DNA from: a virus
Taxonomy: Duplodnaviria; Caudoviricetes
Direction: 5' to 3' (one strand)
IMG/VR virus record: IMGVR_UViG_3300020045_003121
Span: 1-36,749 of that record
Length of the DNA: 36,749 nucleotides
Position 1 is the first letter of the stretch. Each line of letters opens with the position of its first letter. Positions 21,103 through 34,911 of the stretch are shown here, piece after piece. Position numbers and translations under genes: made by a program. The notes beneath the pieces are model-generated. The model was not told the DNA's origin. It worked only from the letters and a program-made list of their open reading frames with translations, and did not search any database.

Positions 21103-21252
21103 TCCCATCAAGCAAGACATTCAGCCGTAACTCGTATGGCTAAGGTATTGCAGCCGTTTGACTTGGCTAAAATAGCCGGACATAGAAACATGAGCCAGAC
21201 GCTTCAATATTACAAAGCGTCTGCGAGTGATTTGGCTAAACTGCTTGGCTAG
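21103..21252 (+). pseudogene. int: Tyrosine integrase C-terminal remnant
   Basis: Translates HQARHSAVTRMAKVLQPFDLAKIAGHRNMSQTLQYYKASASDLAKLLG* (HxxRH, GH, catalytic Y). An in-frame TGA at 21100 precedes it and no N-terminal part is present. Confidence 0.85.
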
Positions 21253-21995
21253 GAAGCTTCAAATAAATCAAAGGTTTCAGAGTGCGGGACATAAACTGCA
21301 GATGAATTATGTTGCTCGATACGTTCGGCAATTACCGCAGCTCGTTGCGATGATGTTGGTGGAGTGTACATTCCGAACCGCGCAATGCTGCCGCTATTGA
21401 CTGCCGCATTGGTGCTATCTGCGCTTGCCAGCGGCAGTTTTGAAAAAACCGCAGGATCAAGCATCCGCAATCCATGCAATTTGCATTTTGGACGGCCCTT
21501 TTCGTCGCATATAACCCGCATTGCATCGTGTATACGTTTCCACCATGACGATGTTCCTGGTGTAGACCATGCTCCAGAGCTGCCGATTGCGACGGTAGAG
21601 AATGAATTAACTAGCCACTCCAGCCAGTCTAAAGATTCGTGCAAATGCCAAACTGGTACGCCTTTAGCTTTTCCGCCTATGCGAACCCACTTCATCACCC
21701 AATCGACGTTATCTTGTTCTGTACCGTCGATAATGTCGGGTATCAGGCACCAATCGAACCCAGGGTGTTGATATAGCGAGTGGCACCATGCCCAGTAAGC
21801 ATCAAAATCAATTTCGCCCTTGCCTTGTTTCCAGTGCGTAAAAGCTCCGTTATCCAAAACAAACGACTGGCAAACATCTAAAACCGCTCCAGTATCATCT
21901 TGACGACCAAACGGTATTAGCGCATGGCGACCAACTAAAAATCGCGCTGTATCTTGTCTTGTTCCGCCTATTGGTGTTCCGTGGTAGTGAATCAT
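21249..21995 (-). CDS. TGT/DpdA-like base-exchange (transglycosylase-fold) protein
   Basis: Motifs LDNGAF, IPDII, VPVWH, AIGS, KLHGL and SADST parallel the TGT barrel motifs DSG, D, PVxH, xHxxG and SxDS. Confidence 0.6.
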   Translation of the reverse strand: MIHYHGTPIGGTRQDTARFLVGRHALIPFGRQDDTGAVLDVCQSFVLDNGAFTHWKQGKGEIDFDAYWAWCHSLYQHPGFDWCLIPDIIDGTEQDNVDWVMKWVRIGGKAKGVPVWHLHESLDWLEWLVNSFSTVAIGSSGAWSTPGTSSWWKRIHDAMRVICDEKGRPKCKLHGLRMLDPAVFSKLPLASADSTNAAVNSGSIARFGMYTPPTSSQRAAVIAERIEQHNSSAVYVPHSETFDLFEAS

Positions 21996-23024: not shown

Positions 23025-23546
23025 TTACCATTGACTCTCAACCTGAACCACTAGCCCTCGCTTTGCAGTGCCTTGCCTGGTGCGTGTTCTGCGCTGCATA
23101 TCAAGAAATGGGTTATAGCTTTCAATGCTGTACTTTGTTTCAGCCTTGCGTTTAAATGACGTTCTGCTTTTTGTCGGCGCGTTTCTATCGCGCTTTGGTT
23201 TCTTTTTAAGAAACTCGGCCATGTCGTCTATTTTGTAATACTCCGTTTCTTTCCAGTTAGCGCCGATAAAAGTACCGGATGGATAAGGAAAATTAATATT
23301 ATTTCTTAGACGATAAATAACGCTACTACATACACCAAACAATTCCCTTGATTCAAACAGGGTACAGCAACCGTCCGGGTAAGTTGAGCGCTGTCTTTTT
23401 CTATATGCCTCAAGTACTGCGTCTTCTTCATACACTGGCGAGCGCCCAGCAAAAAAAGCAGGCTGAATGTCTTTCATCGCATTGCGTAAAGTCTGGCGAG
23501 GAATATCATTATCACGAGACATTTCTGTAAGTGTTTTAAGTGACAT
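23025..23546 (-). CDS. Putative DNA-binding protein with tandem winged-HTH (Xis/AlpA-like) domains
   Basis: Two HTH-like segments ('LTEMSRDNDIPRQTLRN' and 'ESRELFGVCSSVIYRL...FPYP'). Confidence 0.45.
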   Translation of the reverse strand: MSLKTLTEMSRDNDIPRQTLRNAMKDIQPAFFAGRSPVYEEDAVLEAYRKRQRSTYPDGCCTLFESRELFGVCSSVIYRLRNNINFPYPSGTFIGANWKETEYYKIDDMAEFLKKKPKRDRNAPTKSRTSFKRKAETKYSIESYNPFLDMQRRTRTRQGTAKRGLVVQVESQW

Positions 23547-25694: not shown

Positions 25695-25853
25695 TCATTT
25701 CGGCCTCGCAACAACGCTGACAATCTTGCGGCCATAGGCTTGGCGTCTCGCGTCTCGTGCAGCCTCAGCTTGCGCGACTTGTTTGCAGTTGGCGTGGACT
25801 TCGTTACGAATAACGTCTTTGTTGTGGTAATGCGCTTCTGTTAAGAAAATCAT
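25695..25853 (-). CDS. Small hypothetical protein
   Basis: Track ORF 25695-25886. The internal ATG at 25853 overlaps the upstream stop and is the more likely start. Confidence 0.4.
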   Translation of the reverse strand: MIFLTEAHYHNKDVIRNEVHANCKQVAQAEAARDARRQAYGRKIVSVVARPK

Positions 25854-26080
25854 TTCCGCACCATTTCGCTTTTTGCAGTAATGCAACCATCATGCGCTGG
25901 TACGCTTCCAAACTCGCCGTACAAATAAACCAAGCTGGTAGCGATAGCTGCTGAAATAATAAAAGCCCCTAACGCAAGTCCACGATAAAAGTCTTTGTCG
26001 CTGTCATCATCTCTGTATGCAGTAGAGCAGCCAGTTTCAGCCACACGCTTTTCAAATTCTTCCAGGTTATTTATTGCCAT
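25850..26080 (-). CDS. Small membrane protein
   Basis: ATG 26080 has a GGAG SD. One TM helix. Confidence 0.55.
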   Translation of the reverse strand: MAINNLEEFEKRVAETGCSTAYRDDDSDKDFYRGLALGAFIISAAIATSLVYLYGEFGSVPAHDGCITAKSEMVRK

Positions 26081-26102
26081 TTTTTTGCTCCGATAAATTA
26101 AG

Positions 26103-26286
26103 TTGATAGCCGCCAAACGCATTAACCTTTTACTTAAATGCGCGGACAAGGTTTCCACAGCTTGTTCCACTGATACTTCCGACTCTTTTTAACCAGGGCC
26201 AGAACTCCTGGTGGCGGCTATCAATTCTGCCTACTGCAATACTGCGGCTCACGTAACGCAACCCGGTTCAAACAATAGACAGAATT
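26103..26286 (-). ncRNA. Two adjacent multibranch RNA structures in the early-left transcript
   Basis: 13-bp perfect inverted repeat 26103-26115/26212-26224 enclosing inner hairpins, and a 14-bp stem 26223-26236/26273-26286 with G-U pairs on the minus strand. Confidence 0.55.
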
Positions 26287-26329
26287 CATAACCCTAAAAA
26301 ATGCCAGCATCCTTGCTGGCAATATGTTT

Positions 26330-27040: not shown

Positions 27041-27103
27041 TTCTCTCTCTGAAAAAATGCCGCCATCCATAGCGGCTAGTCGCTTCTTTAGGTGGTGCGT
27101 AAA

Positions 27104-27205
27104 CTATTTTTGCGTTTCGTCTTTTCCGTCTTTATCAATCATTGCGAATCTCCAGCCAACAGTGATTCCGTTTATGTAAATCGTTATTTTCTTTTTTGAT
27201 TTCAT
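27104..27205 (-). CDS. Small hypothetical protein (33 aa)
   Basis: Manual ORF MKSKKKITIYINGITVGWRFAMIDKDGKDETQK, preceded by AAGAG. Confidence 0.35.
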   Translation of the reverse strand: MKSKKKITIYINGITVGWRFAMIDKDGKDETQK

Positions 27206-27226
27206 GCTTATCTCTTGTGATGTTCA

Positions 27227-27307
27227 TAAAAAGTGCCGAAGTCTCACCGGCTCCCATTTCATTTCTGGCGGCTTTTGCTGGCCTTCGGTAATGGGTAAGA
27301 TCGTTTA
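27227..27307 (-). ncRNA. Structured RNA element, copy 1 (boxA-like sequence plus hairpins and U-tract)
   Basis: Imperfect repeat of 27584-27668 with compensatory base changes. Confidence 0.6.
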
Positions 27308-27583
27308 GCTCGTTATTTCTCGGCTTGCGTACCGCTAATAACTAAGCCAAGGCATTGCCAATCGTTGCCGGTCTTTCCCGACTGTCACCGCAGAGGCTTC
27401 GGTTCTCGCCACGTTCACTTTTCGCCTACTTGGTTTGCCAACTTTTTCAGCAAATTTGCTTACTTTTGGGGACTTCGTTCGGGTACTCGGTTTCAGTTCT
27501 TAAAATCTTTGTAAAAGCCACTCAGAAAATGACTTTTAAAAAGACCCGGCTAACTTCGCCGGGGAAGGTCTTTAGGTGGTGCG

Positions 27584-27668
27584 TAAAAAGTGCCAAGGCT
27601 CTCACTTGGCTCACATTTCGTTTCTGCGGGGCTTAGCCCAGGCTTCGGGAATGTGTAAGATCGGTTTA
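27584..27668 (-). ncRNA. Structured RNA element, copy 2 (boxA-like sequence plus hairpins and U-tract)
   Basis: Starts at the stop of 27666-27851 and contains CGATCTTACACATTCC. Covaries with copy 1. Confidence 0.6.
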
Positions 27669-27851
27669 AGCGGTTACTTCAATTCCAAAAAATTCTTTAA
27701 TCAAACGTGGTGACATTGCGTTTGCTACTGACTGCCACCTGTCGCCAATCATTGACCAAACATCGAACACAACCGTCTCTGTGCCTTTGTATTCAACGAT
27801 TCTTTTGTTTACTGCGATTTGTCTGCTGTAGTTTTTGCTGTATGTGCTCAT
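27666..27851 (-). CDS. Hypothetical protein, first gene of the leftward operon
   Basis: 61 aa, GGA SD, downstream of PL. No HTH visible. Confidence 0.6.
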   Translation of the reverse strand: MSTYSKNYSRQIAVNKRIVEYKGTETVVFDVWSMIGDRWQSVANAMSPRLIKEFFGIEVTA

Positions 27852-27895
27852 TTCGCTATCCAGGTTAGTTTCGGCGTGTTGCCGTGTTGGAATGC

Positions 27896-27924
27896 ATTAA
27901 AGCACCGCTTTACAATCGCGTCAA
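27896..27924 (-). promoter_or_regulatory. Leftward early promoter (PL-like)
   Basis: TTGACG(27924-27919)-17-TTTAAT(27901-27896), overlapped by operator 1. Confidence 0.75.
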
Positions 27925-28002
27925 GTTTTATTTAAAGCTCAGCTTTACTTTATTTTGTAAGCACAAAAAAATCGCTTTCGCTTAAGGTAAAGCCATGCTT
28001 TA
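27898..28002. promoter_or_regulatory. Three palindromic operators TAAAGC-N3-GCTTTA
   Basis: Perfect-arm copies at 27898-27912, 27933-27947 and 27988-28002. Confidence 0.85.
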
Positions 28003-28004
28003 AT
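27996..28004 (+). promoter_or_regulatory. Rightward early promoter (PR-like), extended -10
   Basis: TG-C-TTTAAT ends 6 nt before ATG 28011 and overlaps operator 3. Confidence 0.55.
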
Positions 28005-28010
28005 AGCAAC

Positions 28011-28247
28011 ATGTTAGAAGAAATCATAAGCACCTATCCTTCTGAGGCTGAGTTTTGCAGAGCTGTTGGATTAAAACACCAGCAGTACTTAACGCAGATA
28101 AAGAACAAAACAAGGCCGATCCCGCCAAAGATGGCTATTGCCTTGCTTAATCTGCATGGGGTGCCTTTGCACGAAAGCAGACCGGAAATATACCCAGCCA
28201 GTGTCTATCCTATGTCACCGGAGACTGTACGGAAGGGCAATAGGTAA
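28011..28247 (+). CDS. Cro/YdaS-like HTH regulator
   Basis: 'SEAEFCRAVGLKHQQYLTQI...IPPKMAIAL...RPEIY'. First rightward gene. Confidence 0.8.
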   Translation: MLEEIISTYPSEAEFCRAVGLKHQQYLTQIKNKTRPIPPKMAIALLNLHGVPLHESRPEIYPASVYPMSPETVRKGNR

Positions 28248-28264
28248 ATGTTTAAACAGTTTGC

Positions 28265-28325
28265 GCGTCTAGGGTAGCTCCCGAACACCCGTTACCTTGC
28301 CGGGCTGACGCCAATTTTTGCAAGG
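28265..28325 (+). ncRNA. Three-way-junction cis RNA element upstream of the replication gene
   Basis: GCGTC/GACGC closing stem with GGG-TAGCT-CCC and CCCG/CGGG hairpins. Loop CCTTGC is complementary to GCAAGG at 28320. Confidence 0.55.
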
Positions 28326-28399
28326 GTTATTGAAGGAATGACGATGAGCGATGAATTTTATATCAGGGAAGAAATAGAAAAAGGCAAGCGGTATTAGCT

Positions 28400-29615: not shown

Positions 29616-29868
29616 CAAATTGCTTGAATTGCGCCTTGCCAAAAAATCAGCAGAAGAAAAGCAAATCAAGCTCGACCAATGGAAACACATTCAAGCCGAC
29701 TGCCCATTGCTGGCAGAATTTATGCAGGGCATGAGCGCCAAAACAGCAGAGATATTCGGCCAAGGCAAAAAAGCGTTTGCAGCAGTGCAGACTTTTGAGG
29801 GTGGCGCGGAAGTTGTTACCGGGGAATTTGCACCGGCTCGGCGTGGCGTAAGCGGGGTGTTTAGATGA
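29602..29868 (+). CDS. Hypothetical protein
   Basis: Track ORF 29590-29868. ATG 29602 is the likely start. Confidence 0.5.
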   Translation: MQCSNKLLELRLAKKSAEEKQIKLDQWKHIQADCPLLAEFMQGMSAKTAEIFGQGKKAFAAVQTFEGGAEVVTGEFAPARRGVSGVFR

Positions 29869-30722
29869 ATCTTTCAATTTCATTCAGCGGAGGGAGAACA
29901 TCCGCTTATATGACTAACTGGTTGTTAGAAAACAAACGAAACGATTTTGAAAATATCGTAATCACGTTTGCCAACACAGGCCAAGAAAACGAGGAAACGC
30001 TTGAATTTGTTGATAGGTGCGACAAGGAATGGAATTTAGGCGTTGTGTGGCTTGAGGCGGTTGTGCATGAGAAGGGCAAAGGCAATACGCACAAAATAGT
30101 GGATTTTGAAACCGCCGATAGATCGGGCAAGCATTTTGAAGATTTCATAAAAAAACACGGAATCCCTAATGCAGCGGCTCCCAAATGTACCGACGAGCTG
30201 AAGCTTGCGCCGATGCGCTCCTATTTACGCTCAATCGGCTGGAAAAACGGCACATATAAAACCGCTGTTGGCATCCGAGTTGATGAAATGGACAGAATCA
30301 GCTCGCGCATGGTTGAGCAGAATTTAATTTACCCGCTATGCGAGTACACCAAAGTCACTAAACAAATGGTAACGCTGTGGTGGGAACGTCAACCGTTCAA
30401 CTTAGATTTAAAAGAGCATCAAGGCAATTGCAAGTGGTGCTGGAAAAAATCAAAACGAAAGCTTTTGACCATCGCAAAAGAAACGCCGGAAGCTTTTGAG
30501 TTCCCGATTCGCATGGAAGCTAAGCATCGATTTGCTGGTCCTTGGAAAGATCCTAACGGTTTTGGTCGTGTGTTTTTTAGAAATCATCAAACCGCATTAG
30601 ACATCATTGAAGAATCAAAACAGCCATTCATCCCATTTACAGAAGCCCCGATAAATTTCGATTTGTTTGACGACGAAATGGATTCCGCTGGCGCTTGCTC
30701 TGAATCTTGCGAGGTTTATTAA
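29865..30722 (+). CDS. PAPS-reductase-like (PP-loop, Cys-rich) protein
   Basis: SFSGGRTS, FANTG, CTDELK, GIRVDE, NCKWC and C-terminal CSESC. Confidence 0.85.
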   Translation: MNLSISFSGGRTSAYMTNWLLENKRNDFENIVITFANTGQENEETLEFVDRCDKEWNLGVVWLEAVVHEKGKGNTHKIVDFETADRSGKHFEDFIKKHGIPNAAAPKCTDELKLAPMRSYLRSIGWKNGTYKTAVGIRVDEMDRISSRMVEQNLIYPLCEYTKVTKQMVTLWWERQPFNLDLKEHQGNCKWCWKKSKRKLLTIAKETPEAFEFPIRMEAKHRFAGPWKDPNGFGRVFFRNHQTALDIIEESKQPFIPFTEAPINFDLFDDEMDSAGACSESCEVY

Positions 30723-30830
30723 ATGCAAGTAATCCGCATAGCCAACGAAGCCGCGCGTAAGTCGGTATTGATGCAGATTCAGGCGCTTAGTCTTGATACG
30801 GTCAAATCTATGCGGATGAGGACTGTTTGA
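30723..30830 (+). pseudogene. Truncated duplicate of the ninB 5' end (35 aa)
   Basis: MQVIRIANEAARKSVLMQIQALSLD... versus MQVIRIANEAARNSALMQIQALSLE at 31678. Confidence 0.8.
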
Positions 30831-31678
30831 TGGCCGCGTATTACAATGAATGGGATAAGAAGTCAGCATCATGGCTTAGGGAATTGATTAAAGCAGGCTT
30901 GATAGCCGATGGGGAAGTAGATGAACGCAGTATTGCCGATGTTCAAGCAGGAGACATTAGAGGATTTAATCAATGCCATTGGTTTGCTGGAATCGGCGGC
31001 TGGTCGTATGCGCTTAGACTTGCAGGAGTTACGGACGACTATCCCGTGTGGACAGGATCATGCCCTTGCCAGCCTTTCAGCACTGCCGGAAAAAATAACG
31101 GGAAGTCCGACGAGCGTCACTTGTGGCCCGAGTTCGCAAGACTTATTGCCGAAGTTAGACCTGTCACAGTCTTTGGCGAACAGGTTGAGGGCGCGGTTAA
31201 GCACGGGTGGCTCGATGATCTACAAGCAGACATGGAAAGAGAAAACTACACCGTTGGGGCTGCGGTATTGGGCGCACACAGCGTCCAGGCGTACCACCAA
31301 AGACAACGACTTTACTGGGTGGCAGACAGCAACGACAAGAGACTGGAAGAACGGCAAGGAGCAGAACGTACCAATCAACTGCCTATTAGGGCGAACGGTT
31401 TGGTTGACGGCTTGGGCAACTCCAACAGTGACAGACGCCCAGCGGGGTGTGAAACCGCCGAGGCCGCACGATACCGGAATACCGCTGACTCAGCAGGTTG
31501 GGCAAATCCTGACTGGATCGAATGTCGAGACAACAGGCTCAGGCCAATTAAACCCGGCATTAAGTGCATGGCTGATGGGGTTCCCGCAAGAGTGGTGCGA
31601 TTGCGCGGTTACGGCAATGCAATAGTTCCGCAAGTAGCTGCGGAGTTTATCAGCGCCTTTTATGAGGTTTTTTCGTAA
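30830..31678 (+). CDS. C5 cytosine DNA methyltransferase, alpha (catalytic) polypeptide
   Basis: WFAGIGG (motif I), GSCPCQPFS (IV), GEQV (VI), QRQRLY (VIII) and GYGNAIVP (X). No motif IX in this frame. Confidence 0.9.
   Translation: MAAYYNEWDKKSASWLRELIKAGLIADGEVDERSIADVQAGDIRGFNQCHWFAGIGGWSYALRLAGVTDDYPVWTGSCPCQPFSTAGKNNGKSDERHLWPEFARLIAEVRPVTVFGEQVEGAVKHGWLDDLQADMERENYTVGAAVLGAHSVQAYHQRQRLYWVADSNDKRLEERQGAERTNQLPIRANGLVDGLGNSNSDRRPAGCETAEAARYRNTADSAGWANPDWIECRDNRLRPIKPGIKCMADGVPARVVRLRGYGNAIVPQVAAEFISAFYEVFS
30921..31625 (+). CDS. Nested +1-frame ORF: putative beta subunit of the C5 MTase (true start uncertain, possibly ATG 31215)
   Basis: Ends in GQLNPALSAWLMGFPQEW (motif IX) and carries W-x-T-[PA] repeats. 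Confidence 0.75.
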   Translation: MNAVLPMFKQETLEDLINAIGLLESAAGRMRLDLQELRTTIPCGQDHALASLSALPEKITGSPTSVTCGPSSQDLLPKLDLSQSLANRLRARLSTGGSMIYKQTWKEKTTPLGLRYWAHTASRRTTKDNDFTGWQTATTRDWKNGKEQNVPINCLLGRTVWLTAWATPTVTDAQRGVKPPRPHDTGIPLTQQVGQILTGSNVETTGSGQLNPALSAWLMGFPQEWCDCAVTAMQ

Positions 31679-34647: not shown

Positions 34648-34911
34648 ATGAACTTTGGACAAGCATTAGACGCGTTAAAAGATGGCAAAAAGGTTTCCCG
34701 TGAAGGCTGGAACGGGAAAGGGATGTTTTTATTCTTAGTTGCAGGCTCTACTTTTCAAGTGAATAGGCCGCCGTTGCTTGGAATTTATCCAGAAGGAACG
34801 ACAATAAACTATTGTCCACATATCGATATGAAAACAGCAGATGACAAAATTGTTCCTTGGCTAGCTAGTCAAACAGACGTATTAGCCGACGATTGGGGCA
34901 TAGTTGAGTAA
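34648..34911 (+). CDS. DUF2829 / Tad2-like anti-defence nucleotide-sponge family protein
   Basis: 'MNFGQALDALKDGKKVSREGWNGKGMF...VPWLASQTDVLADDW'. Confidence 0.85.
   Translation: MNFGQALDALKDGKKVSREGWNGKGMFLFLVAGSTFQVNRPPLLGIYPEGTTINYCPHIDMKTADDKIVPWLASQTDVLADDWGIVE

Follow-up and report, generated by a model that had tools for sequence, protein, structure and literature searches.

A duplicated boxA-headed RNA motif in a phage leftward early operon resembles a nut site carrying an extra RNA arm

How could a phage with no recognizable N gene make use of a lambda-like boxA in its early leader, and what would be the role of the RNA that follows this boxA and stands twice in the same operon? We address this question for a virus record that was analyzed over its whole length of 36,749 nt, hereafter the window, to which all coordinates refer.

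The early region of the phage

The virion genes of the phage are P22-like and its early region is lambda-like. The leftward operon contains a 61-aa gene, a pentapeptide-repeat gene, a recombination exonuclease, a dUTPase and an xis-like gene, while the rightward operon carries a Cro-like HTH gene, an O-like replication protein and nin-type genes. Among the 64 ORFs scanned, none matched cI, integrase or N, in a record whose ends may be missing since it begins inside the portal gene and none of its ORFs matches a large terminase. The absence of an Arg-rich N protein, already remarked in the original prediction, holds at this level too, as no N-like gene lies ahead of the terminators described below. 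The 61-aa and Cro-like proteins reach at most 2 arginines per 12 residues, against 5 in lambda N; two downstream ORFs, 25695-25856 and 23025-23546, reach 4-5. No DNA match to the phage was found in two AMO-bearing orders (15 + 3 genomes), and an SSB search for the host was unspecific.

The divergent early genes are 160 nt apart, and the gap between them is occupied by three operator-like palindromes, which occur nowhere else in the window, together with a candidate leftward promoter:

27898..28002: three operator-like palindromes TAAAGC-N3-GCTTTA (at 27898, 27933 and 27988), between the divergent early genes
27896..27924, minus strand: putative leftward promoter, TTGACG-17-TTTAAT with an upstream TG, missed by our consensus-scan rule
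27666..27851, minus strand: 61-aa gene, first of the leftward operon; no known family, predicted three-stranded sheet and C-terminal helix, not arginine-rich

On the rightward side, the Cro-like gene starts 6 nt past a TG-N-TTTAAT within the third operator (27975-28011, plus strand), and its transcript is probably leaderless and autoregulated. An int-alpA RNA (Rfam RF02996, 42 bits, above gathering) lies at 28262-28326 on the plus strand, between the Cro-like and replication genes; we take it to resemble the P4 CI and P1 C4-type RNAs, and a search for its antisense target returned chance 8-mers only. Since neither cI nor integrase was matched among the 64 ORFs, early control of this phage may rest on one HTH protein and RNAs. 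Elsewhere in the window, we noted a Tad2-like anti-Thoeris protein (34648-34911, plus strand; PF11195, E 3e-29), and a queuine tRNA-ribosyltransferase-like gene (21249-21995, minus strand) which sits behind the xis-like gene, at the place expected for the integrase. Together with a PAPS-reductase-like gene (29865-30722, plus strand), the latter may point to a modification of DNA bases. The frames 30827-31678 and 30921-31625 overlap on the same plus strand and each matches DNA methyltransferase families.

The 61-aa protein has 11 homolog records, some of them probably the same protein, and matches no Pfam or PHROG family, with Atlas matches not exceeding 0.80. Its predicted fold gave no clear match either (best E 0.56 in the PDB, best Z 3.4 in VIA, best E 0.09 among viral structures), and a longer form of the protein was not found, in what is a weak test. 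The motif is absent behind the homologous gene in L110, the one homolog for which DNA was examined.

Two copies of one RNA fold

The leader that follows the 61-aa gene contains two copies of the motif, both read leftward:

27584..27663, minus strand: upstream copy (copy 2 of the original prediction), 80 nt, made of a boxA-like octamer, P1, an internal loop, P2, a single A, P3 and a ACUUUUUA tail
27656..27663, minus strand: boxA-like octamer CGAUCUUA of the upstream copy, 7/8 to lambda boxA, with A at position 3, predicted unpaired
27612..27655, minus strand: inserted arm of the upstream copy, with P1 (27655-27650 with 27617-27612) around the internal loop and P2 (27643-27626)
27584..27611, minus strand: linker A, P3 hairpin (27610-27592) and tail of the upstream copy, a boxB-like frame and weak terminator-like site
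27227..27303, minus strand: downstream copy, 77 nt, with boxA-like octamer (27303-27296), P1 (27295-27290 with 27258-27253), P2 (27283-27267), P3 (27251-27235) and tail (27234-27227)

The duplication of this RNA motif is real. The two copies align with a score of 70, whereas no other place in the window exceeds 27 and 60 shuffled queries score 24.9 +/- 2.7 (maximum 38), which bears out the duplication originally proposed, for a unit a little shorter than the ~85 nt then claimed. No third copy was found in the window with a model built from both copies, the next match having 13.6 bits and E 0.11. The shared ACUUUUUA end that had also been described is indeed the tail of both copies.

Folded singly, each copy gives the same helices, with pair probabilities of 0.57-0.96 for the 6 bp of P1 and of 0.82-1.0 for P2 and P3. 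The 5' strand of P1 reads CACAUU in the upstream copy and is nut-spacer-like, the internal loop of the arm is purine-rich (CCCGAA / AGAAACGA), the P2 hairpin is variable, and the P3 loop has 7 nt and begins with UGAGA in both copies. Over 13 paired columns, the copies show 7 differences, namely 3 double changes (6) and 1 G-U change, and no pair is broken. The helices quoted in the original prediction are thus present and keep their pairing as the sequence changes, an outcome with a null probability of 0.0003 under uniform and 0.003 under transition-biased substitution. P1 and P3 were both retained in 48 of 1500 random mutants, and when the registers were slid, at most 48% of cells paired, compared with 100% in the true register. 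A two-row shuffle control (121/500) was uninformative, and neither copy has an unusual folding energy (z -0.26 and -0.42). The unpaired octamer, AGAAA and UGAGA are constant between the copies while P2 drifts.

As for known RNAs, neither at the gathering threshold nor at E <= 10 did Rfam give anything on the two copies, except for a chance match to Vault of 17 bits on the other strand which touches 27658-27663, so that the claim of an RNA without description stands as far as Rfam families are concerned. No tRNA or tmRNA was found either. The hammerhead ribozyme was rejected, its core letters being missing from the motif and Rfam being silent. The motif is an uncatalogued RNA with a lambda-type boxA octamer at its head.

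Two features of the fold suggest another possibility, namely that a protein or a ligand, bound in a pocket made by the internal loop together with the UGAGA loop, controls termination at P3, the boxA match being due to chance. The internal loop has a 3-nt bulge followed by G.A and A.G, as in the definition of a k-turn given in the available part of PMC5061560, and fits a k-turn by letters in both copies. It differs from the standard kink-turn in that AGAAA interrupts the helix after the G.A pairs, and in that a close relative of the phage, described below, has changed the first G (27646), which a k-turn requires. The P3 loops, for their part, consist of UGAGA plus 2 nt, and can be compared with the geometry of a T-loop, a pentanucleotide U-turn loop with 1-3 extruded bases according to the portion of PMC4810234 at hand. 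The conserved purine-rich loop and the terminator-like end of the motif would suit such an attenuator, and by consensus letters UGAGA plus 2 nt is T-loop-like. Against it, Rfam is without match, P3 has a high pair probability and the copies have no competing helix in common, the downstream genes offer no metabolic theme, and a boxA followed by AUU is rare by chance, as detailed in the next section. We consider such a sensing device quite improbable.

The boxA-like octamer and known antitermination sites

Against the boxA and spacer of lambda nutR, taken from the lambda record and from Table 1 of PMC2724277, the upstream copy is identical at 15/16 positions and the downstream copy at 13/16. The 15/16 identity had been part of the original prediction and is confirmed by these two sources; so is the place of the site right after the stop of the first gene, since it begins 2 nt past the stop codon of the 61-aa gene (7 nt past cro in lambda). 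No other site in the window comes within 2 mismatches of the lambda sequence. When boxA plus AUU was used as a pattern, the two sites of the motif were the only ones in the window, and other phage DNA contained 10 in 948,482 nt.

The octamer departs from lambda boxA at position 3, which is A. According to the part of PMC3177189 available, mutation of boxA G2, C5 or U6 blocks NusB-NusE binding, and an A8 of the lambda type means weaker binding; the octamer of the motif retains G2, C5 and U6 and carries this A8. Position 3 itself is a naturally variable boxA position. In the 16S leaders of 30 gammaproteobacteria, strict boxA matches have C in 12, T in 7 and A in 2 of 21 cases, while a looser pattern finds A in 4/27, with 3 leaders lacking a site. 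Of 15 YGATCTTT sites hand-picked from 341 matches, 6, from 3 genomes, lie just before 16S or 23S, and the boxA consensus of B. subtilis, as it appears in the consulted portion of PMC13753749, has A at position 3 and binds NusB. The octamer misses the gammaproteobacterial consensus GYTCTTTAANA (PMC5725501, seen in part) by its A at position 3 and its lambda-type A8; variants of this consensus exist in other lineages. In genome G183 (L285-L288), four identical CGATCTTTAACAA sites have a 40-nt downstream sequence in common, with no rRNA match within the 700 nt examined; they could possibly be boxA sites ahead of another repeated RNA.

The end of the octamer is the exact start of P1. The octamer is predicted to be unpaired with a probability of 0.92-1.0 in the upstream copy after P1 has formed, and of 0.90-0.97 in the downstream copy taken alone; with 60 upstream nt added to the latter, boxA positions 2-5 are predicted to be ~45% unpaired. 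In lambda, NusA requires the AUU of the spacer (PMC2724277), and these letters are constant in both copies and in the relative. The spacer is predicted to be free early, until P1 closes when ~40 more nt have been made, and to be paired afterwards (unpaired probability 0.0-0.17), in agreement with the sequestration in a stem that had been proposed at the outset.

How does the motif compare with antitermination sites already described? Lambda nutR and nutL consist of boxA, a spacer and boxB, and direct N-dependent processive antitermination with NusA, B, E and G. The motif shares with them a 7/8 boxA, the near-identity of boxA plus spacer with nutR, an AUU at positions 12-14, a place just past the first early gene's stop codon as in nutR, and a hairpin framed by AGCC..UGA..GGCA which follows. 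However, boxA and this hairpin are separated by 44 nt in the upstream copy and 41 in the downstream one, compared with 8 in lambda; the spacer is paired in P1; the 7-nt P3 loop is not a GAAAA/GAAGA pentaloop and the P2 loops are not conserved; a U run follows the hairpin, which is not the case in lambda; and no N-like gene precedes the terminators. Both copies are leftward, whereas lambda has one site per early operon, and the two-copy model found no match behind the Cro-like gene or in the rightward operon. Without an adjacent boxB pentaloop, an N or a right-operon copy, we rejected a plain membership in the lambda nut family.

The boxA of rrn operons and CRISPR arrays works without N, the Nus complex shielding untranslated RNA from Rho. 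Like these sites, the boxA of the motif heads a long untranslated RNA and is used twice, its A at position 3 has counterparts among natural rrn boxA, and no phage protein would be needed. CRISPR arrays as boxA carriers are mentioned in passing in PMC13753749. The motif differs from this group by its lambda-type A8 in place of the extra U of the consensus, by an octamer that is part of a conserved fold ending in a terminator-like hairpin, and by its location in the early operon of a phage, among terminators of the intrinsic type.

On the other hand, the outline of the motif recalls the HK022 put sites, which, in the accessible sections of PMC9378689, are RNAs of ~65-70 nt with two stem-loop arms joined by one nt, found in the early operons of a phage devoid of N. 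The motif could then be a factor-free antiterminator, a two-armed RNA binding RNA polymerase directly. We found no similarity to HK022 putL or to the putR region; the model has no match at putL, and its best HK022 match (E 3.2) falls inside gene O. From the same sections of PMC9378689, put has a conserved sequence and a triplex stem I, which the motif does not have, and a pause 21 nt after stem II, whereas the U run of the motif comes 2 nt after P3, which is the geometry of a terminator. There is one put per early operon, compared with two motif copies in the leftward operon, and no boxA-like octamer stands directly before putL or within the putR region. The model result, the pause spacing and the presence of both copies in one operon led us to reject the motif as an HK022 put RNA, and we regard a put-like action more generally as very improbable. 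Altogether, these comparisons suggest that the motif, if it functions at all, would work like a nut/boxA site.

The leader and the possible function of the motif

An alignment of the model with lambda nutL skips the arm and places boxB on P3, at 7.3 bits and E 3.5. The frame AGCC-N1-3-TGA-N4-8-GGCA, a pattern drawn after the sequences were known, fits the P3 of each copy as well as the two boxB of lambda; 948,482 nt of other phage DNA contain it 9 times, in no case jointly with boxA plus AUU. The upstream copy can thus be read as boxA, spacer, a 36-nt insert pairing back on the spacer, a single A and a boxB-framed hairpin, and the motif looks like a nut site with an arm of 33-36 nt inserted, ending in a weak terminator-like hairpin. 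The hairpin that follows the capsid gene (6896), itself terminator-like, has this frame too, which may be just the terminator style of this phage. Both P3 pass the terminator scan. The five U are preceded by AC, with which weak termination is expected. Because the frame recurs in the capsid-gene terminator, because the loop is not an N-binding pentaloop and because a U run follows, unlike in lambda, a weak terminator is at least as likely a role for P3 as a boxB-like one.

The P3 of the upstream copy is followed in the leftward operon by these elements:

27569..27587, minus strand: first copy of a 19-nt C-rich exact repeat, overlapping the motif tail and preceding the 27545-27563 terminator-like hairpin
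27545..27563, minus strand: terminator-like hairpin and U tract, directly behind the upstream copy
27085..27103, minus strand: second copy of the 19-nt exact repeat, preceding the terminator-like hairpin 27076-27059
27059..27076, minus strand: terminator-like hairpin ahead of the pentapeptide-repeat gene
26302..26321, minus strand: terminator-like hairpin past the pentapeptide-repeat gene, with the recombination genes downstream

From 27610 to 26302 on the minus strand, there are five terminator-like sites, all intergenic, which the 61-aa gene alone precedes. Six such sites in 2.5 kb are not far above the 3.1 +/- 1.8 expected by chance. None was found on the minus strand over 26300-22300, and no promoter-like site was found in the non-coding gaps among these terminators. 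After the stop of the 61-aa gene, ~460 nt pass before an ATG ORF preceded by a plausible ribosome site begins (27205), and one short GTG ORF is all that lies in between.

Several other elements lie in this leader. A hairpin with UGACA, a 5-bp stem and a GAAAGA loop (27366-27388, minus strand), absent from Rfam, is found ~60 nt before the downstream copy; its 20-mer is found without change in 88 viral stretches, several of which adjoin tRNA-like sequence. It is followed by a 54-nt hairpin element (27313-27366, minus strand) directly ahead of the downstream copy, with 0 differences in the relative. The 140-nt segment 27366-27505 has 87% identity with another contig of the relative's study, at 1679 nt from a replication gene start, with a deletion and an insertion that cancel out; it could be RNA, or else a frame of 53 codons for a basic product, starting at CTG and lacking a ribosome site. 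A near-perfect 12-bp A/U-rich hairpin (27510-27540, minus strand) comes next after the first terminator-like site and is a possible second terminator or RNase III site. The 19-nt repeat has 1 match in viral sequences, located at a gene junction in a phage that is unrelated. The non-coding stretch 26085-26295 (minus strand), which comes right after the terminator-like site at 26321, folds strongly (z -3.8, 0/200 shuffles) into a long hairpin and a multibranch domain, for which no Rfam match was obtained.

The relative mentioned above is a phage present in four freshwater runs of one study. A piece of its contigs spans 27584-27890 with 14 differences, and within 27584-27720, 10 of the 11 substitutions and a 2-nt gap are concentrated in 27620-27654. 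At 27620, 27642, 27649 and 27654 it takes the letter of the downstream copy, and 27642 with 27627 forms the same compensatory pair as between the copies. In the relative, the motif thus seems to be a hybrid between the two copies, and for that reason it is not independent evidence. Octamer, AUU and AGAAA are unchanged in it, and P3 with the tail has at most 1 difference, the one that is not listed by position; with the change at 27654 a P1 pair is lost, except if this difference falls on the partner position, 27613. The contigs of the relative have 355 other letters in place of 27104-27583, and the 27506-27567 terminator is there joined to 27313-27366, behind the pentapeptide gene. Such arrangements show the leader to be a patchwork of shuffled RNA modules.

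The known range of the motif is narrow, and the covariation evidence likewise comes from two copies and one close relative. Pattern scans of viral contigs gave 0 matches in one case and 35, 17 and 55 stretches in the others, all judged to be chance; the best-looking sets of the 55-stretch scan (L328; L337 with the same-sequence L311 and L352) were discarded as lying inside ORFs. A scan of genome contigs gave 64 stretches, none of which continues the motif, and one of metagenomes 13, none real. The 0-match and 35-stretch viral scans and the genome-contig scan demanded a G at 27646, so that the relative would escape them. The two-copy model, of low sensitivity because it is made from two sequences, found nothing below E 0.12 in 91 and 86 loci and no match in 4, 5 and 151 genomes or records. 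Searches by blastn returned nothing meaningful in phages, plasmids and E. coli genomes, and the motif is missing from ten loci of relatives of the replication protein. The search of phage sequences with a model of both copies, which had been suggested at the outset as a check, thus brought no wider family and no distant homolog. No description of the motif was found in the literature at the level of titles and abstract starts. Its letters were not found in the supplements of PMC10690425, alignment archives mmc2, mmc4 and mmc5 aside, and it may be among the 10,000 candidates of that study.

Would an ordinary terminator or mRNA-stability cassette, duplicated and spread by recombination, suffice to explain these data? 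The shuffling of modules in this leader, the hybrid-like copy of the relative, the average folding energy, the similar hairpin frame at the end of the capsid gene and the failure to find distant homologs in the viral, genome and metagenome scans all go in this direction. Pairing is however kept in P1 and P2 and not in P3 alone, the octamer, AGAAA and UGAGA stay constant as P2 drifts, and a plain terminator has no need of a 50-nt upstream arm. We believe such a cassette with no special mechanism to be very unlikely. One could also assume that the two copies are small RNA genes, or processing units freed from the early transcript, which act in trans, for instance as decoys that bind NusB-S10 or some other protein of the host. 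The patchwork of RNA modules would accommodate it, as would the widespread hairpin ahead of the downstream copy, the 3' end that P3 and the U run would define, and the use of structured RNAs by this phage, of which the int-alpA RNA is an example. Yet no promoter-like site precedes the downstream copy, neither the leader nor the surroundings of any start codon contain a complement of at least 10 nt, those of 10-13 nt being inside unrelated coding regions, and the nutR-like place behind the first stop codon fits a role in cis. A small RNA is thus unlikely in our opinion, while deserving serious consideration.

We propose instead that the two copies are nut-like modules which likely load host Nus factors and likely help the polymerase, in the absence of N, to pass a leader that is rich in terminators and for the most part untranslated. 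We give this reading a probability of about 45%. Once the ribosome leaves the 61-aa gene, NusB-S10 would bind the single-stranded boxA, and NusA could contact the AUU spacer as long as it is free. P1 would then close over the spacer, bringing boxA beside P3 and looping out the arm; a dsRNA site of NusB-NusE adjoins its boxA site, according to the available part of PMC3177189. P3 and ACUUUUUA would act as a weak terminator or a pause that checks the loading of the complex, and a loaded polymerase would resist Rho on untranslated RNA and read through more frequently. The second copy would reload the complex after ~280 untranslated nt. The action would resemble that of an rrn-type boxA against Rho, possibly strengthened by the arm.

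Since Nus factors without N are reported to suppress Rho-dependent termination only (PMC2724277), read-through of the intrinsic-type terminators at 27563, 27076 and 26321 would need more than boxA. A bolder hypothesis is that the inserted arm stands in for N: boxA would recruit NusB-S10, and the folded RNA would make the polymerase resist intrinsic terminators without any phage protein, the AGAAA loop of the P1/P2 arm docking on the UGAGA loop of P3. Both loops lie ~6 bp from their shared junction. We hold this extension of the nut-like reading to be rather improbable. The arm might otherwise bind a protein, for example the 61-aa product.

Two forms of early antitermination are known in phages, one based on nut together with the N protein and the other on the put RNA, which needs no factor. 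If the arm replaces N, the motif would represent a third route, midway between the N/nut system of lambda and the put of HK022. The fusion of boxA with a conserved RNA arm and a terminator-like hairpin, where no N gene was matched, would amount to an intermediate design. Should the motif be a small RNA or a decoy instead, it would still be an uncatalogued phage RNA. As a nut-like site, it would extend the rules of boxA recognition, with A at position 3, to phages outside enterobacteria.
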